57,816 nucleotides of DNA from Eubacteriales bacterium (GTDB lineage Bacteria; Bacillota; Clostridia; Oscillospirales; CAG-272). Made by a program: the position numbers and the translations under genes. Shown here in pieces: positions 10,225 to 57,816 of the stretch; the first letter of the stretch is position 1; every line of letters starts with the position of its first letter. The notes below the pieces were generated by a model. It saw only the letters and a list, made by a program, of their open reading frames with translations, searched no databases and was not told the DNA's origin. The stretch covers positions 1 through 57,816 of the forward strand of contig JAZQWF010000057.1 in assembly GCA_045632185.1 (NCBI GenBank), read 5' to 3'.

Positions 10225-12147
10225 ATGCAGGAGCTGCCGCTGTATCTGTTTCACGAGGGGACAAATTACCGCGCGTGGGAGTATCTCGGCGTGCATCGCA
10301 CGGCGACGGGGTTTGTGGCACGCGTGTGGGCGCCGAATGCAAGTGCCGTTTTTTTGGCAGGTGATTTCAACGCCTGGCAGGAAACGCACCCTATGGCGCG
10401 CGTGAGCGAAAAGGGCGTTTTCGAGTGTGTGTTTGAGAGCGAGGCATTCGGCGAGGGATCGCTTTACAAATTCAAGATCTACCACCGAAACGGGGTGAGT
10501 TATAAGGCAGATCCGTATGCGCGCGGAGCGGGAGAATTCCCCGAAACCGCCTCCGTATACCGCGAGGTGGAGGGCTTTGATTGGACAGATGCAGGGTGGC
10601 TTGCTTACCGCGAAAGGCAGAGAAAAAAAGGAGCGTACGCGCAACCGATCAATATTTACGAAATGCACGCCGGCTCCTGGAAAAGGGGCTCTGACGGGGG
10701 ATCTCTGCGCTTTTCGGAGCTTGCCGAGGAGCTGGCACCTTACCTCAAACAGATGGGCTACACGCACGTGGAGCTGATGCCTGTGATGGCGCACCCCTTC
10801 GATGGCTCGTGGGGATATCAGGTGACGGGGTATTACGCGCCCTGTGCGCGCTATGGCACGCCGCGGGAGCTGATGGATTTCGTGGACAAGATGCACGGCG
10901 CGGGGATCGGTGTGATCCTTGACTGGGTGCCTGCGCATTTCCCGAAGGACGCGCACGGGCTTTATGAGTTTGACGGCGCGCCGCTTTACGAATATCAGGG
11001 GGCGGATCGCATCGAGCATCGTGAGTGGGGCACGCGCTTTTTTGACGTGGGGCGTGAGGAGGTACAAAGCTTTCTTATTTCCAATGCGCTCTACTGGGCA
11101 GAGGTTTATCACGCGGACGGCTTGCGCGTGGACGCGGTGGCGTCGATGCTGTATCTGGACTACGACCGCTTACCCCACGAATGGGTGCCGAACGTGCACG
11201 GGGATAATCGTAATTTGGAGGCGATCGCTTTCTTTCAAAAGCTGAACGCGGCGATGCGCACGCACGCGCCGCAGCTGCTGATGATCGCAGAGGAGTCCAC
11301 CGCGTGGGGGAATTTGACAGGCACGGAAAACGGTGGGCTTGGATTTTCCCTGAAATGGAATATGGGGTGGATGAACGATACGCTGTTTTACGCCGCGCTG
11401 GACCCCGTTTATCGCAAATATCACCACACGTGTGTGAATTTTTCGCTGACCTATGCCTTTGGTGAGCGGTACGTACTGCCGATCTCTCACGACGAGGTGG
11501 TGCATGGGAAAAGGTCCTTGATCGAGCGTATGCCGGGGGACTACGCGCAGAAATTTGCAGGGGTACGCACCTTCCTTGCCTATATGATGACGCATCCGGG
11601 CAAGAAGCTGCTTTTTATGGGCTGCGAGATCGGGCAATTTCGCGAATGGGATCACGCGGGCGAGATAGAGTGGTTCTTGCTTGGATATGAAAAACACGCA
11701 AAGCTGCAACGCTATGTGGCGGCGCTCAATCATTTTTATTTGCAAAATCCGCCGCTTTACGAGTGTGATCACGATTGGAACGGATTTCAATGGATCGATG
11801 CCGACAACGCAAGCGAGGGCGTGGTTGCCTACCGCCGCATTGACGCGCGTGGGAAAGAGGTGGTGGTGATCCTCAATTTCACGCCCGTCAAGCGGGAGAA
11901 TTTCCGCGTTGGCGTCCCCATACACGGCGTGTGGCGAGAGGTGTTTAATTCAGATGCAGCCGAGTACGGCGGAGAGGGAGTTTGTAACGGGGGAGTACTT
12001 TGCAGCGAGGAACTCTCGTGCAACGGCATGCCGCAATCCTTGCTCCTGACGCTGCCGCCTATGGGGGCAATATTCTTAAAAGTGGGCAAACGGTATAAAA
12101 AAACGCAGAAAATACAACAAAACAACAACAAGGAGGAGCAGAAATGA
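10225..12147 (+). CDS. glgB: 1,4-alpha-glucan branching enzyme
   Basis: GH13 motifs VILDWVPAHFP, GLRVDAVASMLY, IAEESTAW, ISHDEVVHGK. ATG 10225 lies 7 nt after GGAGG; ATG 10219 is an in-frame alternative. Confidence 0.9.
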   Translation: MQELPLYLFHEGTNYRAWEYLGVHRTATGFVARVWAPNASAVFLAGDFNAWQETHPMARVSEKGVFECVFESEAFGEGSLYKFKIYHRNGVSYKADPYARGAGEFPETASVYREVEGFDWTDAGWLAYRERQRKKGAYAQPINIYEMHAGSWKRGSDGGSLRFSELAEELAPYLKQMGYTHVELMPVMAHPFDGSWGYQVTGYYAPCARYGTPRELMDFVDKMHGAGIGVILDWVPAHFPKDAHGLYEFDGAPLYEYQGADRIEHREWGTRFFDVGREEVQSFLISNALYWAEVYHADGLRVDAVASMLYLDYDRLPHEWVPNVHGDNRNLEAIAFFQKLNAAMRTHAPQLLMIAEESTAWGNLTGTENGGLGFSLKWNMGWMNDTLFYAALDPVYRKYHHTCVNFSLTYAFGERYVLPISHDEVVHGKRSLIERMPGDYAQKFAGVRTFLAYMMTHPGKKLLFMGCEIGQFREWDHAGEIEWFLLGYEKHAKLQRYVAALNHFYLQNPPLYECDHDWNGFQWIDADNASEGVVAYRRIDARGKEVVVILNFTPVKRENFRVGVPIHGVWREVFNSDAAEYGGEGVCNGGVLCSEELSCNGMPQSLLLTLPPMGAIFLKVGKRYKKTQKIQQNNNKEEQK

Positions 12148-13608: not shown

Positions 13609-16044
13609 ATGGCAAAAAAGTGGGACGCACGCGCAGTGCGCGCGGCGCTGGAAAACAAGCTGGCGCGCCAGTTTGGGTGTGGCGCGAAGGAGGCAAGCGA
13701 GGAGCAGATCTATAAGGCGAGCGCGCTTTGCGTGAAGGATATTCTGGCCGAGCGACGCGCCGCCTTCAAGAAAAAGGTAAACAGGGCGGGGGCGAAGCAG
13801 GTGTACTATCTGTGCATGGAATTTTTGCTTGGCCGCTCCTTGCGCAACAACCTTTGCAATCTGGGCTTGGAGGGCGAGTATCGTGCCGCGTTGGAGGGAC
13901 TTGGCTTTTCGGCAGATCGTATCTATGAATGCGAGCCGGACGCAGGGCTTGGCAACGGGGGACTTGGGCGTCTTGCCGCCTGCTTTATGGACGCCCTTGC
14001 CGGCGGGGGATATCCCGCCATGGGTTTTTCCATTTGCTATGATTACGGCCTTTTCCGCCAGATGATCGTGGACGGAATGCAGGTGGAGCTGCCCGACGTA
14101 TGGCTGCCCGGCGGGGAGGTGTGGTTGCAGCCCCGCACCGACCGCATTCAGCGCGTGCATCTGGGCGGCCATATCCGTGAGGAATGGCGCGACGGGCATC
14201 TTGCCATCATGTATGAGGGCGGCGAGGAGATCGAGGCCGTGCCCTATGATATGATGGTCTCGGGCGCGGGGAACGAGGCGGTCTGCGCGCTGCGGCTTTG
14301 GCGCGCGCGGAATATCCGCAATTTCAACATGGGGCTTTTCTCGCAGGGCGAGTATATGAAGGCACTGGAAAAAAGCAACAGCGCAGAGATCCTTTCCAAG
14401 GTCCTTTACCCCTCCGACAATCATGCGGAGGGGAAGCTGCTGCGCCTATCGCAGCAATATTTTTTGGTGTCGGCCTCCTGTCAAAGTATCCTTGCCGATC
14501 ATCTGCGTGCGTACGGAATGCTGGAAAATCTGCCTGACAAGGTGGCGATCCATGTCAACGATACGCACCCTGCGCTGGTGATCCCCGAGCTGATGCGCAT
14601 CTTCTTGGACGAGTATCATTTTTCTTGGGAGAAGGCGTGGGATCTTGTCGTGCGCACGGTGTCCTACACCAATCACACCGTCATGCCGGAGGCGCTGGAA
14701 TGTTGGAGCGAGGATATTTTTGCGCTCCGTCTGCCGCGTATCCACACGATCGTGCGGGAGATCAACGAGCGCTTTTGCCGCGAGGCGTGGGCGCGCTTCC
14801 CGGGCGAGTGGGACAGAATTTCGCGCATGAGTGTGATCGCCGCGGGGCAGGTGCGTATGGCAAATCTGTGCGTGATCGGCTCGCACGCAGTGAACGGCGT
14901 GTCGGCGCTTCATTCCGAGATCCTCAAAAAAAGCGTATTTTCCGACTTTTACAAAATGTATCCGACGCGCTTTTGCAACGTGACAAACGGTGTGGCGCAC
15001 CGTCGGTTTTTGAATTACGCCAATCCGTCGCTGGGGGCGTTGCTTGACGAGTGTATCGGCGCGGATTACCGCAAAAACCCCGCACGTCTGTCGGATTTTG
15101 CGAAATTTGCGGGGGACGGCGCGGTGCTTGCCCGCCTTGGCGAGATCAAGCGCGCGAATAAGGAGAGCTTTGCTGCATGGCTGCACGAGCGCAGCGGAAA
15201 GCTGATCGATCCCGCCGCCATGTTTGACGTGCAGATCAAAAGATTGCACGAGTACAAGCGCCAGCTTCTGAACTGTCTGCATATCATCGGGCTGTATCTG
15301 GATCTGAAAGAAAATCCCCATCTTGATATGCAGCCGCGCGTGTTTTTGTTCGGCGCCAAGGCAGCGCCGGGGTACGAGATGGCCAAGCGTATCATCAAGC
15401 TGATCTGCATGCTGGAAAAGCAGATCGACGCAGACCCTGCGGCGCGTGAGAGGTTGCGCGTGGTGTTTTTGGAGGACTATAACGTGTCAATGGCGGAGCG
15501 ACTGATCCCAGCAACGGAGCTGAGCGAGCAGATCTCGATGGCGGGCAAGGAGGCCAGCGGCACGGGGTGTATGAAGCTGATGATGAACGGTGCGCTCACC
15601 ATCGGGACGGCGGACGGCGCGAACGTGGAGATTGCCGAGGCGGTGGGCGAGGAAAATATTTTCCTGTTCGGTCATAGTGCCGCCGAGGTGGAGGAGATCT
15701 GGGCGCGCGGGTATCAGGCGGCAAGCTTTTACACGGGGAACGAGCGACTTGCGCGTATTGTGAACGCGCTGGGGCCAGGGATCGGGGGCGAGAGCTTTTC
15801 GGATATTGCCACCTATCTTTTGGCAGGGCAGGGCGTGGCGGATCCTTATTTATGTCTGGCGGATTTTGAGGCGTACCGCCGCGCACAGCTGGCGGCCGCG
15901 ATGGCTTACGGCGATCGGGACAGATGGAACGAAATGTCCCTTCGCAACATTGCTGCCTCGGGCTATTTTTCCGCCGATCGCAGTATTGCGGAGTATGCCG
16001 CGCACATCTGGGGTATCAAGCCCGTGGGGGAAAACAAATGCTGA
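13609..16044 (+). CDS. glgP: Glycogen/maltodextrin phosphorylase
   Basis: 811 aa with GNGGLGRLAACF and the PLP region GKEASGTGCMKLMMNGALTIGTADGANVE. Confidence 0.9.
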   Translation: MAKKWDARAVRAALENKLARQFGCGAKEASEEQIYKASALCVKDILAERRAAFKKKVNRAGAKQVYYLCMEFLLGRSLRNNLCNLGLEGEYRAALEGLGFSADRIYECEPDAGLGNGGLGRLAACFMDALAGGGYPAMGFSICYDYGLFRQMIVDGMQVELPDVWLPGGEVWLQPRTDRIQRVHLGGHIREEWRDGHLAIMYEGGEEIEAVPYDMMVSGAGNEAVCALRLWRARNIRNFNMGLFSQGEYMKALEKSNSAEILSKVLYPSDNHAEGKLLRLSQQYFLVSASCQSILADHLRAYGMLENLPDKVAIHVNDTHPALVIPELMRIFLDEYHFSWEKAWDLVVRTVSYTNHTVMPEALECWSEDIFALRLPRIHTIVREINERFCREAWARFPGEWDRISRMSVIAAGQVRMANLCVIGSHAVNGVSALHSEILKKSVFSDFYKMYPTRFCNVTNGVAHRRFLNYANPSLGALLDECIGADYRKNPARLSDFAKFAGDGAVLARLGEIKRANKESFAAWLHERSGKLIDPAAMFDVQIKRLHEYKRQLLNCLHIIGLYLDLKENPHLDMQPRVFLFGAKAAPGYEMAKRIIKLICMLEKQIDADPAARERLRVVFLEDYNVSMAERLIPATELSEQISMAGKEASGTGCMKLMMNGALTIGTADGANVEIAEAVGEENIFLFGHSAAEVEEIWARGYQAASFYTGNERLARIVNALGPGIGGESFSDIATYLLAGQGVADPYLCLADFEAYRRAQLAAAMAYGDRDRWNEMSLRNIAASGYFSADRSIAEYAAHIWGIKPVGENKC

Positions 16045-43954: not shown

Positions 43955-45385
43955 ATGCGTAAGTTTGATACCAAGGTGCAGCACCTGAAATATAAGGTCT
44001 TGCGCGAGGTTGCCCGCCTTGCGTGGAAAGATCAGCTTTTGGACAATGTGCTGGACATCCCGAAAACGCTGGTGCCGGGTAACGAGCCCACGATGCGCTG
44101 CTGCGTATATAAGGAGCGCGCGATCCTTGCCGAGCGCGTGAAATGTGCGATGGGCGGTGATAAGGAAAACCCCAATGTTATCGAGGTGCTGGAGATCGCT
44201 TGTGACGAATGTCCCGCCGCAGGCTACGAGGTCACGAACGCCTGCCGCGGCTGTCTTGCACACCGTTGCGAGGATGTGTGCCGCTTTGGTGCGCTTACCT
44301 TTGATAAGGATCATGTAGCGCACATTGATAAATCCAAGTGCAAGGAGTGCGGTGCGTGCGCCAAGGTCTGCCCCTATACCGCTATCGTCAACCGCAAGCG
44401 CCCCTGCCAGAATGCCTGCAAGGTCAAGGCGATCTCTGCCAACGGACAGAAGGCGGCAACTATTGATAACAATAAGTGCATCAGCTGCGGTGCGTGCGTG
44501 TATCAGTGTCCCTTCGGCGCGATTACAGATAAGTCCTTTATCACCGATGCCATTTCGATTTTGAAGAACCGCGTGGCGGCCGACGGCAATAAGGCGTATC
44601 CCGTATATGCGATCGTAGCCCCTGCCATTGCCAGTCAGTTCTCCTACGCTAAACTGGGGCAGATCATCACGGGCTTGAAGCAGCTGGGCTTTGACGAGGT
44701 CGTGGAGGCGGCGCTTGGCGCGGATATGGTGGCACTTGCCGAGTCGCGCGAGCTTGCAGAGAAGGGCTTTTTGACCAGCTCCTGTTGCCCTGCGTTTGTG
44801 CGCTATGTGAACAAGGCGTACCCCGAACTTGCAGAATACGTGTCGCACAATCCCTCTCCTATGGTGGCGCTTGCCGAGTACATCAAGAAGGTGGATCCCG
44901 CCGCAAAGGTCATTTTTGTGGGCCCCTGCACGGCGAAAAAGGCGGAGGCGCGGCTGGATAGCGCCAAGGCCTTCGTAGACGTTGTGCTGACCTTTGAGGA
45001 GCTGCAAGCGCTGTTTGACAGTCGCAATATCGAGATTTCCGAGCTGGAGGAAGGTTCGCTGAACGACGCCTCTGCCTTCGGGCGCATTTTCGCGCGCTCC
45101 GGAGGGCTTTGTGAGGCGGTGGCTCAGGCGATGAAGGAGCAGGATATCTCCTTTGACTTGAAGCCGGTTGTTTGCGACGGTATCGAGGCGTGCCGCACGG
45201 CGCTGCTCAAAAAGAGCAAGAACGTGCTGGACGGCAACTTTATCGAGGGTATGGCCTGCATCGGCGGGTGTATCGGCGGTGCCGGATGCCTGACGCATGG
45301 TGAAAAGAATAGAGCAGAGGTCGACAAATACGGCCATGAAGCCGAGGAAAAGACCATCAGCGACGCCGTGTCGCAGATGAAATAA
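43955..45385 (+). CDS. Second [FeFe] hydrogenase-like protein (group-B-like, monomeric type)
   Basis: Ferredoxin motifs CKECGACAKVCP and CISCGACVYQCP. Variant H-cluster motifs TSSCCPAF, GPCTAKKAE, EGMACIGGCIGG. Confidence 0.75.
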   Translation: MRKFDTKVQHLKYKVLREVARLAWKDQLLDNVLDIPKTLVPGNEPTMRCCVYKERAILAERVKCAMGGDKENPNVIEVLEIACDECPAAGYEVTNACRGCLAHRCEDVCRFGALTFDKDHVAHIDKSKCKECGACAKVCPYTAIVNRKRPCQNACKVKAISANGQKAATIDNNKCISCGACVYQCPFGAITDKSFITDAISILKNRVAADGNKAYPVYAIVAPAIASQFSYAKLGQIITGLKQLGFDEVVEAALGADMVALAESRELAEKGFLTSSCCPAFVRYVNKAYPELAEYVSHNPSPMVALAEYIKKVDPAAKVIFVGPCTAKKAEARLDSAKAFVDVVLTFEELQALFDSRNIEISELEEGSLNDASAFGRIFARSGGLCEAVAQAMKEQDISFDLKPVVCDGIEACRTALLKKSKNVLDGNFIEGMACIGGCIGGAGCLTHGEKNRAEVDKYGHEAEEKTISDAVSQMK

Positions 45386-45413
45386 CAAAGTCCCCACCAT
45401 ATGGTATCATTAT

Positions 45414-45453
45414 AAAAAGCCCGCCCTGAGAAAACTCTCAGAGCGGGCTTTTT
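45414..45453 (+). terminator. Intrinsic terminator ending the hydrogenase locus
   Basis: aaaaAGCCCGCcCTGAGaaaaCTCAGaGCGGGCTtttt. Confidence 0.85.
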
Positions 45454-45804
45454 GAGCGTTGGGAATAAATTCAGATGAAATCAGAGAAATATATCAAAAC
45501 CGGATTTTGCGCTATTTTGCGCTTGAAAAGAAGATGATATCCGCTTCTTTTTAGCACTAATGATTTTTCTGATCGTATCCTGTCCATTGTGTTTCCTTTG
45601 CTCCGGGGAAATAGAGAAAGGGAGCAAATGCCACCGTTCGCTCCCAAACAAATTGGGAGCAATAAACAAAGAAAAAAGGGATTCCGGGAAAAAGAACGAG
45701 AATCCCTTTTTTGGTATATAAAGATGAACCACAATGTCACAGCAATCTGAATTTGCGGAGATGTAAAAAAATCAACGATCGTGCAATTTGTTTTAGGAAA
45801 TCAA

Positions 45805-45833
45805 TTGCTTTTTGTCGAGAATAGTGATATAAT
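45805..45833 (+). promoter_or_regulatory. Sigma-70 promoter of the AT-rich cassette
   Basis: TTGCTT (45805-45810) - 17 nt - TATAAT (45828-45833). The inverted repeat GCAATT-N14-AATTGC (45783-45808) overlaps the -35 box. Confidence 0.6.
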
Positions 45834-45872
45834 GGTAATTGTATAAAAATACTTATTTTTATGAGGTGGAAA

Positions 45873-46085
45873 ATGGCTGCTAGCTATAAGAAACTATTCA
45901 AAATGTTGATTGATCGTGAGATGAAAAGCAAAGACCTTGCCGCAAAAGCAGGTGTCAGCCCGGCAACACTCGCAAAGATGAAAAAAGATGGTGCAACCGT
46001 ATCGAGTGATGTGCTTGTAAAGATCTGCACGGCTTTGAATTGCACTGTAGATGACATCTTGGAAATTATTCCTGATACAAAGTGA
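45873..46085 (+). CDS. XRE/Cro-type helix-turn-helix regulator (70 aa)
   Basis: MAASYKKLFKMLIDREMKSKDLAAKAGVSPATLAKMKKDGATVSSDVLVKICTALNCTVDDILE, a classic short HTH_XRE layout. SD GAGGTGGA. Confidence 0.8.
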   Translation: MAASYKKLFKMLIDREMKSKDLAAKAGVSPATLAKMKKDGATVSSDVLVKICTALNCTVDDILEIIPDTK

Positions 46086-46097
46086 GAGGAGACAGAT

Positions 46098-46928
46098 ATG
46101 GCTATTAGTAAAAAACTTGAAATTATATATCACAACGGTCAGCCCGATGGCATTCGTTCTATTCGTAGGCACCTCTCCACAATGACTACCTATGTTATTC
46201 CGCGCCCTCTGCTATCGGAAGCTAAGAAGCTTTCGGGCATCAATCGCCCCGGCATATATTATTTGATCAGCGAGAACGACGATAACAAGATTGCTCAGAT
46301 CTATATCGGTCAGACAAGAAACGGAGTTGTTCGCCTTGATGATCACAATCGCTCAAAGAATTTTTGGAACAAGGCAATTATGTTCTTGGCAGATAATAAA
46401 ACCTTCTCCCTTGATATGATAAGCGGTCTTGAAGCCTATGCTATCAGCAAGGCGCAAGACTCCAAACGCTACAAAGTAGAAAACTCGGTTAATCCCAAAT
46501 ATGAGATTGATGAATACGACCTTCCATTAATCGAGGAAGTTTACGAAGAAATTCAATTCATCATGGCAACACAGGGTTATAAGATGGATAATTCCAAAGT
46601 GACCTTGAACGAAGCTAATACGTTACATACTACGCGCAATGGCATTATTGCTTTTGGCGTTTACGATGGGGAAAACTTCGAGGTTTTGGAAGGTTCGGAA
46701 ATCGACATAAACCGCAAATGCCATTCTGCGACGATAGAAAAGCAACGACAAACAGCTCTTGCAAACGGCAATATTGTTTGCATTGATGGCAAATACAAGC
46801 TGACTGTATCCGTATCCTTCACCTCCCCAAGCTCCGCTGGACAATTTGTTTTGGGAGGTAGTATTAATGGTTGGGCAGAATGGAAGGATAAGGATGGAAA
46901 GACATTGGACGAGATATACAGGAAATAA
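46098..46928 (+). CDS. GIY-YIG nuclease-domain protein with a DUF4357-like C-terminal domain
   Basis: GIY (PGIYYL), YIG (IYIGQT), downstream R/E/N positions (RLDDH, LEAYAI, ENSVNP). C-terminus FTSPSSAGQFVLGGSINGWAEWKDKDGKTL resembles DUF4357; the family name is recalled, not searched. Confidence 0.7.
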   Translation: MAISKKLEIIYHNGQPDGIRSIRRHLSTMTTYVIPRPLLSEAKKLSGINRPGIYYLISENDDNKIAQIYIGQTRNGVVRLDDHNRSKNFWNKAIMFLADNKTFSLDMISGLEAYAISKAQDSKRYKVENSVNPKYEIDEYDLPLIEEVYEEIQFIMATQGYKMDNSKVTLNEANTLHTTRNGIIAFGVYDGENFEVLEGSEIDINRKCHSATIEKQRQTALANGNIVCIDGKYKLTVSVSFTSPSSAGQFVLGGSINGWAEWKDKDGKTLDEIYRK

Positions 46929-46970
46929 TTCAAAAGAATATTATTATAAATATATCCTGTTTGAAAAAGC

Positions 46971-47369
46971 ATGACGAAAAATATGATAGAAGTAGTAGCT
47001 GCTCTTATATGGAACGCAAATAAATTTATGATCTGCCAACGTCCGGCGCACAAGGCAAGAGGTCTCCTGTGGGAGTTTGTTGGTGGCAAAGTCGAGCCGA
47101 GCGAAACAAAAGAGCAAGCACTTATTCGCGAGTGCAGGGAAGAATTGAATGTTCTTCTTTCTGTCGGTGACATATTTATGGAGGTTACTCATGAGTATCC
47201 CGATATAACAGTGCATTTGACTTTGTTCAATGCAGCCATTGCTGAGGGCAAACCGCAGAAGTTAGAGCACAACGATATCAAATGGATCACACCAAGCGAG
47301 ATCGCGAAGTATGAGTTCTGCCCGGCAGACGAAGAAATACTTGCAAGAATTTGCGAGGTATACAAGTGA
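46971..47369 (+). CDS. MutT-type Nudix hydrolase
   Basis: Nudix box GKVEPSETKEQALIRECREELNV preceded by LWEFVGG; 132 aa. Confidence 0.85.
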   Translation: MTKNMIEVVAALIWNANKFMICQRPAHKARGLLWEFVGGKVEPSETKEQALIRECREELNVLLSVGDIFMEVTHEYPDITVHLTLFNAAIAEGKPQKLEHNDIKWITPSEIAKYEFCPADEEILARICEVYK

Positions 47370-47740
47370 AAAGTTACGAAACTGAAGCTCGTGAACGCTA
47401 TGGTAATACTGTAGCTTATAGGGAACATGAGCAGAAAACAAAGAATTACAAAAAAGAGAAGTGGGCAGAGGCAAACGACGGCTTGATGGCAATCTTTGCT
47501 GAGTTTTCCGCGTGCAAGGATAGCGGCGTGAGTGCCGATTCTGCCGAGGCACAGGCACTTGTTGCAAAGCTTCAGGCGCACATCACCGCCAACTACTACA
47601 CCTGCACAGACGAGATTCTCGCAGGGCTTGGCAAGATGTACGTTGCCGACGAGCGATTCAAGAAGAATATCGACAAGTATGGCGTGGGAACTGCGGAGTT
47701 TGCGGCAGAAGGGATAAGGATATATGTTGAAAATAAATAA
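47366..47740 (+). CDS. Stand-alone TipAS (antibiotic-recognition) domain protein
   Basis: YETEARERYGNTVAYREHEQKTKNY...GKMYVADERFKKNIDKYGVGTAEF matches the TipAS domain. There is no MerR HTH. The GTG start overlaps the Nudix TGA (GTGA), with GAGG 7 nt upstream. Confidence 0.75.
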   Translation: MKSYETEARERYGNTVAYREHEQKTKNYKKEKWAEANDGLMAIFAEFSACKDSGVSADSAEAQALVAKLQAHITANYYTCTDEILAGLGKMYVADERFKKNIDKYGVGTAEFAAEGIRIYVENK

Positions 47741-48122
47741 ACGTTTTTTGATTGCTCTTCTAACTTTTGCGTTGCCATTTGGATGCGTTGGATGCTCGAA
47801 TGGCGGTTCTGCGACCTATGAGCAGATCAGCGGAGCAGAAGCCAAGGCATTGATGGACAGCGAGAGCGGATATATCATCCTTGACGCAAGAGAACAGGAT
47901 GAATACGACGAGGGGCACATCCCCGGAGCGCTTCTCATTCCTTATGGCGAAATTGCCGACCGCGCTGAAAAGGAGCTTCCCGATAAGGATCAGTTGATTC
48001 TCGTCTATTGCCGAAGCGGCAGACGAAGCAAAATCGCAGCCGAGGAGCTTGTCAAGCTCGGTTATACCAATGTAAAAGAATTCGGTGGCATTATCGATTG
48101 GGAATATGATATTGTGAAATAA
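47724..48122 (+). CDS. Rhodanese-domain lipoprotein
   Basis: Signal/lipobox LLTFALPFGCVGC|S. Active-site loop CRSGRRS. Overlaps the TipAS gene by 17 nt. Confidence 0.8.
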   Translation: MLKINKRFLIALLTFALPFGCVGCSNGGSATYEQISGAEAKALMDSESGYIILDAREQDEYDEGHIPGALLIPYGEIADRAEKELPDKDQLILVYCRSGRRSKIAAEELVKLGYTNVKEFGGIIDWEYDIVK

Positions 48123-48135
48123 GGAAGGTGCGATA

Positions 48136-48639
48136 ATGAATTCATGGCATGTAGGCGTTGCAGCTGAAGCAATGGTGGCTGCTCAATTTGCGCGATATGG
48201 ATATGATGTCTCTGTTCAGTATGGTGCGGATCAGCCCGAATACGATCTTATTGCAAGCCGTGGTGATGAGATACTCAAGGTATCTGTTAAGGGAAGCAAA
48301 GATGGTAGCTGGGGCTTAACTCAGAAATTCAAAAAAGGACGTACATACCACGAGGCAATCGAGATGTGGTTAAGTGGTCACCACAAGAAAACCATTTTCT
48401 GCTTGGTGCAGTTTGAGGATGTTGATGACTGTCAAATGCCGAGAATGTATCTGGCTTCTCCAGAGGAAATTGCATATGTGATGCGCAAGGAAGCTGCAGG
48501 ACGTGGTGATACCATTTTGTATGAATATCATGAATGGAGTCCTACCGCACAGGCATACGGAACGACCGATAAAATCCCCGAAGAATGGCGCTTCACTAGA
48601 GAGCGTGCAGATGAAATATTTACGAAGTACGCAAGGTGA
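48136..48639 (+). CDS. PD-(D/E)xK-like (Hjc/YraN-like) restriction-endonuclease-fold protein
   Basis: N-terminus GVAAEAMVAAQFARYGYDVSV...PEYDLIASRGDEILKVSVKGS follows the E...D...(D/E)xK layout, but SVK stands where ExK is expected. The C-terminal half is not recognised. Confidence 0.45.
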   Translation: MNSWHVGVAAEAMVAAQFARYGYDVSVQYGADQPEYDLIASRGDEILKVSVKGSKDGSWGLTQKFKKGRTYHEAIEMWLSGHHKKTIFCLVQFEDVDDCQMPRMYLASPEEIAYVMRKEAAGRGDTILYEYHEWSPTAQAYGTTDKIPEEWRFTRERADEIFTKYAR

Positions 48640-48657
48640 TTTAAAAGGTAATCTGAC

Positions 48658-49083
48658 ATGATTAAAGAACTTATGCACGATCCCATCTTCCTTGCAGGGA
48701 AGTCGGAGGTCGCAACAAAAGAGGATTTGCAGGTGGCTAAGGATCTGCTTGATACGCTGATGGCACATAGAGAAAGCTGTGTCGGTATGGCGGCGAATAT
48801 GATTGGTGTTCGTAAGCGCATTATCGCCTTTCTTGATGAAAGTGGACGAGCTCCTACATACACCGTGATGCTCAATCCAGAAATCATCAAAAAGGACAGC
48901 GCATACGACACCGAGGAGGGCTGTCTGTCGCTTCTCGGCGGCCCCCGTAAGTGCAAGCGCTATAAGACCATCAAGGTGCAGTATCAGACCTTGGATATGC
49001 AAACGCGCACGAAAAACTTCACCGGCTGGACGGCGCAGATCATTCAGCATGAGGTGGATCATTGTAATGGGATATTGATTTGA
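48658..49083 (+). CDS. def: Peptide deformylase, short divergent form
   Basis: Motif 2 EEGCLS and motif 3 QHEVDH are present. Motif 1 reads GMAANMIG, with Met where the conserved Gln of G-x-A-A-x-Q is expected. 141 aa. Confidence 0.8.
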   Translation: MIKELMHDPIFLAGKSEVATKEDLQVAKDLLDTLMAHRESCVGMAANMIGVRKRIIAFLDESGRAPTYTVMLNPEIIKKDSAYDTEEGCLSLLGGPRKCKRYKTIKVQYQTLDMQTRTKNFTGWTAQIIQHEVDHCNGILI

Positions 49084-49123
49084 CGCACAGATCTGCGTAG
49101 CAAACTGCGTAACAGAACAAACG

Positions 49124-49161
49124 AAAAAAGCCTTGGAAACAAAGTGTTCCAAGGCTTTTTT
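49124..49161 (+). terminator. Intrinsic terminator ending the AT-rich cassette
   Basis: aaaaaaGCCTTGGAAaCAaagTGtTTCCAAGGCtttttt. Confidence 0.85.
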
Positions 49162-49254
49162 ATGGTCGAGGTGACAAGGTATTCGCGCGGTGCGCGAAAA
49201 TTCACGCGCCCTGCGCCTGGCGTGCAAGCCCGCCGATCTTCGGGCGGTGAAACC
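49161..49254 (+). repeat. Direct repeat, copy 1 (identical to 57723-57816)
   Basis: tatggtcgaggtgacaaggtattcgcgcggtgcgcgaaaattcacgcgccctgcgcctggcgtgcaagcccgccgatcttcgggcggtgaaaccgaacttgcgt is identical base for base in both places. Copy 2 is cut by the window end. Confidence 0.95.
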
Positions 49255-49352
49255 GAACTTGCGTTGTTGCAAAGCAACAACCAAGCTCGCAAATGCCACG
49301 CACAAGCACAAAGAAAGCACCGCCAAAAGGGCGGTGCTTTCTTTATGGTCGA
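49161..49352 (+). ncRNA. Candidate structured small RNA or MITE-like element (unclassified)
   Basis: Four consecutive hairpins (TTCGCGCggtGCGCGAA; CACGC-N12-GCGTG; CCCGCCgatcttcGGGCGG; CTTGcgTTGTTGCaaaGCAACAAcCAAG) followed by the terminator-like AAAGCACCGCCaaaaGGGCGGTGCTTTcttt. TTTATGGTCGA occurs at both ends (49159-49169, 49342-49352). Confidence 0.3.
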
Positions 49353-50139
49353 ACTGAATTGGTCTAATACGAACCACCTGGTTCTTGTTTTTTATATTAC
49401 ATAGTAATATAAGTTTCCAAAATCACCACTATCAAAGGCAAGTTTTTGTCACCGAACAAACAGGCAAGCAAAGAAAATCCCCGTTTTTGTCTGCCCGGAG
49501 TATGGCGCTATTATAGCGCAATGCTCCTTTTGTCAATGAGGAGGGGACGAAGAAAAGACTCACCCAAATAGTATAACAGATATTGCAGGCGCTTTTGTTG
49601 CGCGATTTCGAAAAATTTCTCAAAAAAGTTTTGCAATGTTGAAATCTTGATAAACTTTTATCATTCACATTCACAACGACAACGAAGTAAGCACTATTGA
49701 ATGCCAAGTTGACGGCGATTGACGGTATCTTTGCAATCGGGCTTTTGAAGAAAAAACTCTTGTTTGTGTAGCTGCGGCAGATTTCGATGCAGAAGAAGAC
49801 TTTGGAAAAGAGGATACGGCCGATCAAAGCAAGGGGTGTGCCGAGCCGGCGTGTAAACTCGCTCGGAAAACGGCGCTGTTAGGGGGGAGTTGGTGATTTT
49901 TTTGCTTTTTTCTCCGTGGACGGAGTTGATTTCAAAGCCTCTATACATAGTATAGAGGCTTTGCACTGCAAATGTTTTATGAAAAGAGAGAAAATTCCGG
50001 ACGATTCGACAATTACGCGCGTGCGCGTATGTATGAAATTTTAGTCATATTGTTGATTTTTTTTGCACAAATATACATAAAAGTGGGCGCTTCAAAGCGC
50101 CGTTTTTTCTTTTTGGTGACAGCACCGCGTCCCGGTCTC

Positions 50140-50168
50140 TTGCAAAATCGAACGCGTTGTGTTACAAT
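50140..50168 (+). promoter_or_regulatory. Sigma-70 promoter with an extended -10, upstream of the envelope operon
   Basis: TTGCAA (50140-50145) - 17 nt - TACAAT (50163-50168), preceded by TGT. This leaves a leader of about 165 nt before ATG 50335. Confidence 0.55.
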
Positions 50169-50334
50169 ATGTGCGAATTTGTTGATTTCAAAAAGCATTT
50201 TTATTGCAACACCAGCATCACATTCCTGGTAAAATCCGTTCCTGTTACTCGTAATCCGGCGCTTTGCCGTTCTCCGTTTTGCACGCGCGTCCGGGGGACA
50301 AGCAAATCCTTATTTCGTTTGTTTAGGAGTTATT

Positions 50335-51765
50335 ATGCTATATTTTGCGCTTACTTTGGTGCTGGCCGCAGCCTTTGTTGTCGGCTTTCTATTGTTTACT
50401 AAAATAGCACCTCAAAAACAAAACACCTTGCTTAAAGCAGCGGCCATACTTTTGTGCACCATTGGCTTCTTCCGCTTGATGCTCTCGGACTCATTCATGT
50501 TCGTCATTAACGGTGGATACTACGGCGAAACCTTCTATGAGGTTACCGATCCCTTGCAGACTGTCCTGCGTTGGGGTTACTACCTCAATTATGCCGTACT
50601 GCCAATAGCTATCTTTTTTGACAGCCGTCTTTTCCGCAACATTGCCTGCTATTTCTGCTTACCCTTTTCGCTGCTTAGTGCCTTCTTTTTTATGGATTTT
50701 ATGCCCTATTTCCTGGCAGCCGAAGGGAATGGACTACACCTTGTGCCCTGGTTCCGCTATGCCTACTTTGTATTGGAGCTGGCTGTTGCCATTGCCATTC
50801 CGGTTCTCATTCAGATCTGCTATCGCCACGTGCTGAACGTAAAGGACCGCAAGGAGCTTTTGCGCCTGGGCGTTACGCTTCCCGTTATCGTTGCACTGAT
50901 GATCCCGGTTTATGCTCCGCAATCGCTTTTCGGTTATTCTCAAACGATCGCAAAGCAGGGCTCAAATTTCCACCTTGTATGGATTGTGCTGCTGGTGGCT
51001 TCCACTCTGGCGCTTTATTACCTTTTCCGCTTCAAGCCCTACCGTGAGCGTTATATGCTTTGCGTGTTTCTCACCATTGTGCTTTTCTTCCATTACGATT
51101 CGCTTTATCTGATGGGCTTCAGTATCCCGCGCCTGCCGATCCAGCTGTGTAACATTGCTTCCTATCTTTACATGATTGCCATTCTGTTTAAGGCGACGCG
51201 CTTGTTTCAGTTTTGCTTCATTGCCAATATTACGGGTACGGTCCTTGCCATTCTGTTGCCTGACTTTACGCCCGGCGCCTTTGGCTTCTGGAATATGCAT
51301 TTTGTATTAGAGCACTCGCTGGTGCTGATGATCCCCGCGCTTGCGATGGGACTGCGTATCTTCCCGCGCATCACCAAAAAATCCCTGAAATACACCTTCA
51401 TCGGCTTTTCTATCTATTTTGTGTTCTGTCTGACGTCCGGTATGATCCTGAACGGCTATTCTGACGTTACCGGATTCGAGGTCAATTACTTCTTCCTTTT
51501 CGATCTTGAAAAAGCCTTCGCACAATTCCCGTTCTTTACCTTTACCGAGCGCGTACACTGGCAATTCGGACGCTTTGAGGTCTATCCAGTTTTCGTTTTT
51601 TGCATCTATGTGATTTTTCAGCTGCTTTGTGTTTGCTTTTATCACGCGGTGTGTTACTTTTACAAGCTGGAGGACGACCATCTTGCATTGCGTCGCTCGG
51701 CCATCGAGATGCGCGAAAGACGAACCGGCAAGCCGTCCCGTGCACCCAAGGAATTCGTTGACTGA
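50335..51765 (+). CDS. Polytopic membrane protein with a YwaF/TMEM164-like C-terminal half
   Basis: 476 aa with at least 12 hydrophobic segments. The motif RLPIQLCNIASYLYM resembles the LP(L/I)xLC signature of the TIGR02206/YwaF family (recalled). Confidence 0.55.
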   Translation: MLYFALTLVLAAAFVVGFLLFTKIAPQKQNTLLKAAAILLCTIGFFRLMLSDSFMFVINGGYYGETFYEVTDPLQTVLRWGYYLNYAVLPIAIFFDSRLFRNIACYFCLPFSLLSAFFFMDFMPYFLAAEGNGLHLVPWFRYAYFVLELAVAIAIPVLIQICYRHVLNVKDRKELLRLGVTLPVIVALMIPVYAPQSLFGYSQTIAKQGSNFHLVWIVLLVASTLALYYLFRFKPYRERYMLCVFLTIVLFFHYDSLYLMGFSIPRLPIQLCNIASYLYMIAILFKATRLFQFCFIANITGTVLAILLPDFTPGAFGFWNMHFVLEHSLVLMIPALAMGLRIFPRITKKSLKYTFIGFSIYFVFCLTSGMILNGYSDVTGFEVNYFFLFDLEKAFAQFPFFTFTERVHWQFGRFEVYPVFVFCIYVIFQLLCVCFYHAVCYFYKLEDDHLALRRSAIEMRERRTGKPSRAPKEFVD

Positions 51766-57675: not shown

Positions 57676-57722
57676 CTTGCCTCGTCCGAATTACACGTTC
57701 GTATGGGTAAGGTATGGTCGAG

Positions 57723-57816
57723 GTGACAAGGTATTCGCGCGGTGCGCGAAAATTCACGCGCCCTGCGCCTGGCGTGCAAGCCCGCCGATCTTCGGGCGGT
57801 GAAACCGAACTTGCGT
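57723..57816 (+). repeat. Direct repeat, copy 2 (identical to 49161-49254; truncated by the window end)
   Basis: 94 of 94 nt identical to copy 1 by direct comparison. The flanks differ upstream (t at 49160, g at 57722). Confidence 0.95.

Follow-up and report, generated by a model that had tools for sequence, protein, structure and literature searches.

A seven-gene cassette in an Eubacteriales contig is probably a truncated cargo arm of a gut Clostridia integrative-element family

We analysed a 57,816-nt stretch of DNA, hereafter the window, from an Eubacteriales bacterium (Clostridia; Oscillospirales; CAG-272; GenBank assembly GCA_045632185.1, contig JAZQWF010000057.1, positions 1 to 57,816 of the forward strand), in which seven small genes, g1 to g7, follow an [FeFe]-hydrogenase operon. 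An earlier note, made from the letters alone, had described these genes as a horizontally acquired defence or stress cassette whose gene combination it could match to no described system. Comparison with related loci supports the acquisition and speaks against a single new seven-gene system: the cassette is a mosaic of independently swappable genes, and is probably a truncated copy of the cargo arm of an integrative-element family found in gut Clostridia. It is of a kind already known, the defence-cargo hotspot on mobile elements.

Layout, composition and insertion site

The genes and signals of the locus, with gene product lengths in amino acids (aa), are the following.

45414-45453, + strand: terminator that ends the [FeFe]-hydrogenase operon before the cassette, with an inverted repeat of 18 nt that is 94% complementary; it marks the variable site on the left
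45805-45833, + strand: promoter-like site 5' of g1, with extended -10 TGaTATAAT and weak -35 TTGCTT, as read from the sequence
45861-46085, + strand: g1, 74-aa XRE/Cro-C1 helix-turn-helix (HTH) regulator (Pfam HTH_26, 2e-20); putative backbone
46098-46928, + strand: g2, 276-aa GIY-YIG nuclease with a C-terminal DUF4357/RAMA-like domain; putative cargo, slot 1
46971-47369, + strand: g3, 132-aa MutT/NudG-like Nudix hydrolase (Pfam NUDIX_4, 9e-24); putative backbone
47366-47740, + strand: g4, 124-aa stand-alone TipAS domain (Pfam TipAS, 3.4e-40); putative cargo, Nudix-Def slot
47724-48122, + strand: g5, 132-aa single-domain rhodanese (Pfam Rhodanese, 1.8e-18); putative cargo
48136-48639, + strand: g6, 167-aa predicted PD-(D/E)xK-fold protein with an SxK variant motif (PDDEXK_5, borderline); putative cargo, rhodanese-Def gap
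48658-49083, + strand: g7, 141-aa minimal peptide deformylase (Def) with a GMAANM motif (Pfam Pep_deformylase, 2e-31); putative backbone
49085-49110, no strand: right junction motif GCACAGATCTGCGTAGCAAACTGCG, common to the empty site of a sister species, L183
49124-49161, no strand: bidirectional intrinsic terminator closing the cassette, with a perfect 15-bp stem, an 8-nt loop and flanking A and T runs

The list of open reading frames (ORFs) and the Pfam searches bore out the seven + strand genes and their domain assignments, and the reported spacings of 12, 42, -4, -17, 13 and 18 nt are correct. g4 starts with GTG, an in-frame TTG lies at 47351, and the g4/g5 overlap is 17 nt. The strong terminator at the right end was confirmed as a perfect 15-bp hairpin, and a terminator scan found no + strand terminator-like site within the cassette; together with the tight or overlapping spacing, this suggests that the seven genes are probably co-transcribed. 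The promoter had been called a consensus one, which was overstated: the extended -10 is perfect, but the -35 matches at only three of six positions, and for that reason the site is missing from the list produced by a consensus scan. A search of 45000-50500 against Rfam gave only sub-threshold matches, on terminator hairpins.

Recounting reproduced exactly the two spot counts behind the reported shift in composition (20 G+C in 46081-46140, 38 in 44221-44280). The cassette, with a G+C content (GC) of 0.442 compared to 0.560 for positions 1-45400, is the lowest-GC 3.4-kb stretch of the window, and GC at third codon positions (GC3) is 0.40-0.59 in its genes as against ~0.71 in the hydrogenase genes. 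Low GC extends beyond 49161, up to ~52 kb.

All seven genes are absent at this site from the sister species L183, which is 86.5% identical in nucleotide sequence over the hydrogenase operon. The right junction motif GCACAGATCTGCGTAGCAAACTGCG is identical at 24 of 25 nt to L183 ~11588-11612, ~80 nt past the hydrogenase terminator there, where it is followed by an unrelated 633-aa gene and then by homologues of the window terminator, conserved at 13719-13752, and of a 104-nt element. As far as the seven genes are concerned, the site in L183 is unoccupied. L184, the closest relative (93% nucleotide identity), is collinear through the hydrogenase terminator to 45618 and then weakly to ~45676; its contig stops ~60 nt past the last homology, so that it provides no empty-site test. 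Each of three relatives carries different DNA after the hydrogenase operon, namely L183, L184 and L206, the last with a hydrogenase protein 86% identical to that of the window and with an integrase fragment. These stretches comprise a GH42-like gene in L183 (11432-13700), an insert of ~420 nt rich in TGGTCA/ATGGTCAAG motifs in L184 (7819-8240), and a 259-aa ORF with the integrase fragment in L206 (11432-13140); similar TGGTCA motifs follow the 104-nt unit of L183. The DNA directly 3' of the hydrogenase operon (window 45454-45860) differs in every relative examined, and this site is hypervariable.

Backbone genes and cargo slots in relatives

A metagenome scan with g7 yielded 80 Def-centred loci. 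A Nudix gene 78-83% identical to g3 directly abuts Def in 14 of 67 of them, and homologues of g1 (74-79% identical; an XRE gene was counted as present at >=60% identity) are located upstream of Def, at a distance of 3-8 kb, in 10 of the 27 loci with enough flank, in each case with cargo immediately after them. Downstream of Def, tyrosine integrases are found in 9 of the 14 loci whose flank exceeds 9 kb. They belong to a conserved right-hand module composed of a 96-aa ORF, an 83-aa ORF, an HTH_17/AlpA gene, an HTH_36/DnaD_N gene, a 69-aa ORF and two tyrosine integrases, in which the annotated families are HTH_17/AlpA, HTH_36/DnaD_N and two Phage_integrase genes; the HTH_36/DnaD_N gene is a replication-like HTH gene. 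Full-length relatives read, in order, XRE, slot 1, often Nudix, minimal deformylase, slot 2, the excisionase-like HTH_17 gene, HTH_36/DnaD_N and the two integrases. The Def family also occurs in 19 IMG/VR contigs, and the element layout in the IMG/VR contigs L192-L195.

XRE, Nudix and Def stay the same in kind, and what lies in the gaps between them and beyond them varies among L123, L124, L125, L130, L135, L136, L154, L162, L005 and L013. According to PADLOC, these slots hold a type IV methyl-directed restriction endonuclease (4e-225), a DRT UG5-nitrilase system (8e-184), SIR2-APAZ/pAgo (E=0), HerA and type II restriction-modification (R-M); DUF4238 and UDG genes occur as well. L185 carries AIPR and a giant PNP-domain protein beside a Def 94% identical to g7, and L005 holds a DISARM-like set of DrmE, helicase, MZB and methylase. 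In that contig (L005, 1-14016) the DISARM-like genes, with a DrmE_C match, lie directly upstream of TipAS; directly downstream of Def, the same-lineage contigs L005 and L123 (10431-13487) both have a fusion of SIR2-APAZ and short pAgo of 1015-1019 aa.

Neither g2 nor g6 is present in any of the 80 Def-centred loci. Each putative cargo gene is also found independently in other loci. DNA homology between the cassette and every relative stops at ORF boundaries. New cargo would enter by recombination between elements with common backbone genes, which would explain why homology breaks exactly at the boundaries of genes.

Of the three genes that would form the backbone, g3 is matched over its full length by the PADLOC candidate PDC-S07 (2.3e-45; residues 4-129 on profile positions 5-130 of 135), its closest solved structure is the E. 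coli CTP pyrophosphohydrolase NudG (2rrk, 1e-24), and its Nudix box, Gx5Ex7REx2EE, is intact in 22 of 22 homologues from related loci. g7 scores 194 bits against a cutoff of 162 for NCBIfam NF006670 and matches PHROG 2890 (phage peptide deformylase) at 2.7e-38; it retains the metal motifs EGCLS and HEVDH and ends a few residues after the latter, without a C-terminal helix. Motif 1 departs from the canonical GxGxAAxQ and reads GMAANMIG, with Met aligned with the catalytic Gln of solved deformylases. Among Def homologues the variant is common: 78 of 92 have GMAANMIG, 87 have EGCLS or ESCLS and 90 have HExDH. The 137-aa orf60T deformylase chain 5mtc, which we take to be the Vibrio phage Vp16 enzyme, is among the PDB matches of g7 (5e-12). 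For g1, matches to type II toxin-antitoxin antitoxins (HigA, HipB-like, PezA; E=0.002-0.008) were far under their cutoffs, and the Pfam and PADLOC searches detected no toxin family beside it.

In the Def-centred loci L110-L165 it is the Nudix backbone gene that borders the defence slots, and the defence association of PDC-S07 may therefore be positional, which would make its candidate status a possible artefact of where the gene stands.

Downstream genes of the cassette are modular too. The TipAS match covers all of g4 (residues 9-125 on profile positions 1-117 of 117), and the Pfam search found no MerR HTH in it, only TipAS. In a minority of relatives (L005, L013, L105, L108, L113, L116 and L147) a TipAS gene lies between Nudix and Def or directly before Def. 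g5 begins with a signal or lipoprotein-like peptide, has the active-site loop CRSGRRS, as read from the sequence, and gives PspE/GlpE-like NCBIfam matches under their cutoffs; a close copy of the rhodanese is found in only one of the 80 Def-centred loci. The g4-g7 block is ~84% identical in DNA to L005, with homology running from TipAS to the Def stop codon. Two extra genes are inserted between g6 and Def in L013, a UDG-superfamily gene stands in place of g6 in L105, and the gene order differs in L011. These differences indicate that even the g4-g7 block is modular.

No integrase module was found in the window: a tblastn search with the relatives' HTH_17 and HTH_36 proteins and both integrases gave nothing better than E=0.04 in the whole window, the 1.1 kb of non-coding DNA that follows the cassette included. 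The only att-like repeat found around the cassette is a 21-nt pair, 86% identical, which is within chance for short two-copy families and is probably due to chance. Its direct copies (45504-45524 and 50332-50352) are 4828 nt apart, the first standing ~50 nt beyond the hydrogenase terminator, the second on the start codon of a 476-aa membrane gene.

Two gene families linked to type I restriction-modification

g2 contains DUF4357 (4e-19), GIY-YIG (4e-5) and RAMA (6e-4) by Pfam, and the sequence shows its GIY...YIG, Arg and Glu motifs. Earlier work noted DUF4357 both in type IV enzymes of the GmrSD type and in GIY-YIG proteins (PMC4619093). When the seven proteins were checked with PADLOC, g2 was matched over its full length by the candidate PDC-S14 (3.8e-66; residues 1-274 on profile positions 13-295 of 301) and g3, as described above, by PDC-S07. 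The earlier statement that the cassette matches no named system is therefore not quite right; both profiles are single-gene candidates.

Relatives of g2 fall into more than 120 clusters at 93-96% protein identity. Homologues 95-96% identical in protein are only ~85% identical in DNA, and their DNA homology is bounded by the ORF. Protein identity far above DNA identity, with homology ending at the gene, speaks for strong purifying selection that acts on a unit the size of one gene. Ten g2 loci (95-96% protein identity) fall into two contexts; in both, type I R-M genes and a large serine recombinase are neighbours, and none of the ten contains g1 or any of g3-g7.

g6 is a borderline match to Pfam PDDEXK_5 (26.7 bits against a cutoff of 26.1) and also matches the profile of YraN/UPF0102 (3fov, E=0.009), with D37 and S50-V-K52 aligned with D and E-V-K. 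Its AlphaFold2 model has a mean confidence (pLDDT) of 78, and its best Foldseek matches (best E=1.6e-3, TM-score ~0.4) are SPARDA complexes, of which the matched part is taken to be the nuclease domain, together with tRNA-splicing endonuclease and Hjc. On the PDDEXK_5, YraN and Foldseek matches, the predicted fold of g6 is restriction-endonuclease-like. At the catalytic positions E11, D37 and K52 are invariant, and the (D/E) position is an invariant Ser50, giving SVK.

The g6 family has 1897 database matches, with relatives in 284 matching stretches of a one-genome-per-species collection and only 294 representatives with E ≤ 1e-10 at 50% clustering, and the source names in the match list read only 'hypothetical protein'. 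Its members are 57-80% identical across Bacillota, Acidobacteria, Planctomycetes, Nitrospirae, Bacteroidota and one archaeon. We kept 80 species loci from the g6 scan for neighbourhood analysis, and found a type I HsdR gene upstream of the homologue in 27 of 70 and HsdM downstream in 20 of 66; the family stands between hsdR and hsdM in ~40% of species loci. These comprise L008, L014-L017, L022-L027, L030, L031, L033, L035, L038, L041, L047 and L049, and further L055, L058, L059, L066, L075, L077 and L092. The g6 family thus looks like an undescribed R-M-linked accessory gene.

Outside the Def context, two loci share a trio of genes, L029 9347-10513 (a Candidatus Scatosoma metagenome-assembled genome, MAG) and L034 1304-2464 (a Christensenellaceae MAG), in which a Nudix gene 79-81% identical to g3, a common 77-aa ORF and a g6 homologue (65-66%) follow one another.

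No homologues of HsdR, HsdM or HsdS and no other R-M genes were found in the whole window, and g2 and g6 are therefore both orphans here. Look-ups by exact sequence with g2, g7 and the hydrogenase gave no match, and with g6 only contigs of at most 1.2 kb.

Readings of the cassette, known counterparts and the DNA beyond it

The earlier inference of horizontal acquisition fits the atypical composition, the lack of the genes in L183 and the close homologues of g1, g3 and g7 in integrase-bearing elements and IMG/VR contigs. The defence flavour attributed to the cassette is likewise borne out, by the two PADLOC candidates, by the type I R-M linkage of the g2 and g6 families and by the named systems in the slots of relatives. 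We consider the cassette to be probably a truncated copy of the cargo arm of the gut Clostridia element family. In such an element g1, g3 and g7 would be the backbone, g2 would occupy slot 1, and g4, g5 and g6 would sit between Nudix and Def. The XRE protein g1 would repress the promoter at 45805-45833, from which one transcript would run to the terminator at 49124-49161. Each product would act alone and not as a subunit of one machine: g2 would cut foreign DNA, with target choice through its DUF4357/RAMA-like domain; g3 would hydrolyse non-canonical (deoxy)nucleoside triphosphates in the manner of NudG; g4 and g5 would be unrelated stress or antibiotic-type cargo; g6 would be a small helper with a nuclease fold, of a sort that type I R-M operons usually contain; and g7 would deformylate nascent proteins as an element-encoded housekeeping aid.

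Several points weigh against this interpretation. Integrase, excisionase and att site were not found in the window, so that a truncated element is suggested by the homology of three small genes only. These backbone genes are only 74-83% identical to those of integrase-bearing loci, and the closest Def relatives (94-97%) are on short contigs. The backbone itself varies somewhat, with Nudix directly next to Def in only 14 of 67 loci and XRE found in only 10 of 27. In several same-lineage loci (L005, L013 and L105) TipAS, rhodanese and Def stay together, and they could form a sub-module with a joint function. In addition, co-transcription of the cassette is something we infer from its layout, and PDC-S14 and PDC-S07 are candidates proposed from genomic association.

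A pair of linked readings goes further, and we regard it as possible, though doubtful. In the first, the XRE...Nudix-deformylase backbone would mark undescribed tyrosine-integrase elements of gut Clostridia that serve as swap-in defence platforms, with an element-specific role for the Nudix-deformylase pair in entry exclusion, establishment or counter-defence; in the second, g6 would be an unannotated small nuclease-fold accessory of type I R-M found across phyla.

Less probable, and in our view unlikely, is that a prophage or phage satellite left the cassette behind as a remnant of its lysogeny or moron region, in which the XRE protein would be the phage repressor and Nudix and Def auxiliary genes. 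The PHROG matches favour such an origin, with g7 matching phage deformylase as given above, g3 matching MutT/Nudix (1.6e-22), g1 matching phage repressors and g2 matching phrog_12629 (3e-40), as do the 19 IMG/VR contigs with the Def family and two nearby genes of L005, one Peptidase_S24 repressor-like and the other AlpA-like. However, no capsid, tail, terminase or lysis gene was found in the annotated flanks, which span 10 kb and leave room for such genes farther out. The module that is conserved instead consists of HTH_17, HTH_36/DnaD_N and two tyrosine integrases, and IMG/VR calls can include non-viral integrative elements.

A resident housekeeping operon, in which Nudix would sanitise nucleotides, Def mature proteins and rhodanese handle sulfur, with two stray nucleases and an incidental low GC, is improbable. 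NCBIfam does name g7 a peptide deformylase above its cutoff, g3 does resemble NudG/MutT, and same-lineage contigs carry TipAS, rhodanese and Def at 86-96% identity. Against this, the sister species L183 lacks the genes at the site, the flanks of g4-g7 are wholly different among the window, L005, L013 and L011, and Def homologues occur a few kb from tyrosine integrases and in IMG/VR contigs. Moreover, the deformylase has GMAANM instead of the canonical motif 1 and a phage-like minimal length, and GC3 in the cassette is well below that of neighbouring genes. The empty site, together with the variable flanks and with the composition, led us to reject the housekeeping operon.

The weakest candidate is one new defence or stress system of seven genes, in which two nucleases, a nucleotide hydrolase, a deformylase, a ligand sensor and a sulfurtransferase would cooperate under one XRE regulator. 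It is hardly tenable: one promoter-like site, one terminator, tight or overlapping junctions, two members matching PADLOC candidate models and two nuclease folds speak for it, but the 80 Def-centred loci contain neither g2 nor g6, the g2 loci lack the other six genes, relatives' slots are filled by unrelated complete defence systems, and homology breaks at every gene boundary. Among the 80 species loci of the g6 scan, only L013, from the same lineage, has g3-g7, repeating g4-g7 with the two extra genes inserted. The earlier note had itself held that its claim would fall if the seven genes never co-occurred elsewhere, and the set does not recur in ~200 related loci; we rejected the system on these co-occurrence data.

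As a probable cargo arm, the cassette can be compared with several known arrangements. The 'core defense hotspots' of Pseudomonas aeruginosa are defence hotspots flanked by conserved core genes (PMC10250203). As in known hotspots, conserved flanking genes (XRE, Nudix, Def and the integrase module) bracket slots that are variable among close relatives, slot content in relatives is mostly defence systems, and breakpoints lie at gene boundaries. P2/P4 prophage and satellite hotspots, and those of integrative and conjugative elements, are further examples of core-flanked defence hotspots. Unlike in these, the backbone here consists of a minimal deformylase, a small XRE protein and a NudG-like Nudix hydrolase, uncultured gut Clostridia are the hosts, and the window copy lacks a recombination module and carries non-defence cargo (TipAS and rhodanese).

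Besides a tyrosine integrase, integrative and conjugative elements of the actinomycete pSAM2 type carry an XRE-family regulator and a Nudix hydrolase; in pSAM2 the hydrolase is Pif, for which a role in blocking redundant transfer has been described (PMC11706625). The modular layout with these three genes is common to both, the likeness considered being one of layout, whereas RepSA, FtsK/SpoIIIE and Spd genes were not seen in the elements described here, which have two tandem integrases and a deformylase. A Pif-like role for g3 would be only an analogy.

PDC-S14 and PDC-S07 (PADLOC-DB v2.0.0) are single-gene candidates derived from genomic association, and predictions only in the literature found; g2 and g3 match them over their full lengths, and g3 differs in being a backbone gene that flanks slots. 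Extra genes embedded in type I R-M loci are known, such as the PrrC anticodon nuclease and the 'restriction-linked ORFs' of Campylobacter. The g6 family, between hsdR and hsdM, and the g2 family, directly beside type I R-M genes, resemble these in position, but neither is related to PrrC in sequence. g7 resembles minimal phage-type deformylases (5mtc, PHROG 2890) in its length of 141 aa, its lack of a C-terminal helix and its metal ligands (EGCLS and HExDH), and differs from them in motif 1, GMAANM, with Met for the catalytic Gln; it is a predicted deformylase. Unlike TipA-class MerR regulators, g4 has no N-terminal MerR HTH.

A tidy operon of interesting domains is thus not necessarily a system, and the tidiness here would come from cargo slotted between conserved backbone genes. 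For defence prediction, a Nudix gene such as that of PDC-S07 may score as defence-associated simply by flanking defence slots, and the XRE/Nudix/deformylase backbone could guide the search for new defence genes in gut Clostridia that are uncultured. The parts of most interest are g2, g6 and the Nudix-deformylase backbone; the GIY-YIG/DUF4357 protein and the PD-(D/E)xK-like protein, the latter 57-80% identical across phyla, stand out as two uncharacterised R-M-linked families.

Beyond the cassette, a perfect 104-nt direct repeat occurs at 49161-49264 and at 57713-57816, its second copy reaching the window end. Between the copies lie 8.5 kb with ABC-transporter genes and with genes for a TMEM164-like membrane protein, a Big_2 protein and an unknown protein of 821 aa. 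In L183 (13754-13854) the unit is conserved at 99% identity, while coding genes there are only ~86% identical; it had no match in Rfam and none in the viral contig collection, and its fold is no better than that of shuffled sequences (z=0.18). After the first copy, ~1.07 kb (49265-50334; GC 0.44) contains no convincing ORF and no Rfam match, and a blastn search of 49084-50340 against loci L001-L182 gave no match. Hairpins lie within this stretch at 49307-49347, 49933-49963 and 50086-50101, and the short motif TTTATGGTCGA recurs after two terminator-like hairpins (49156 and 49339).

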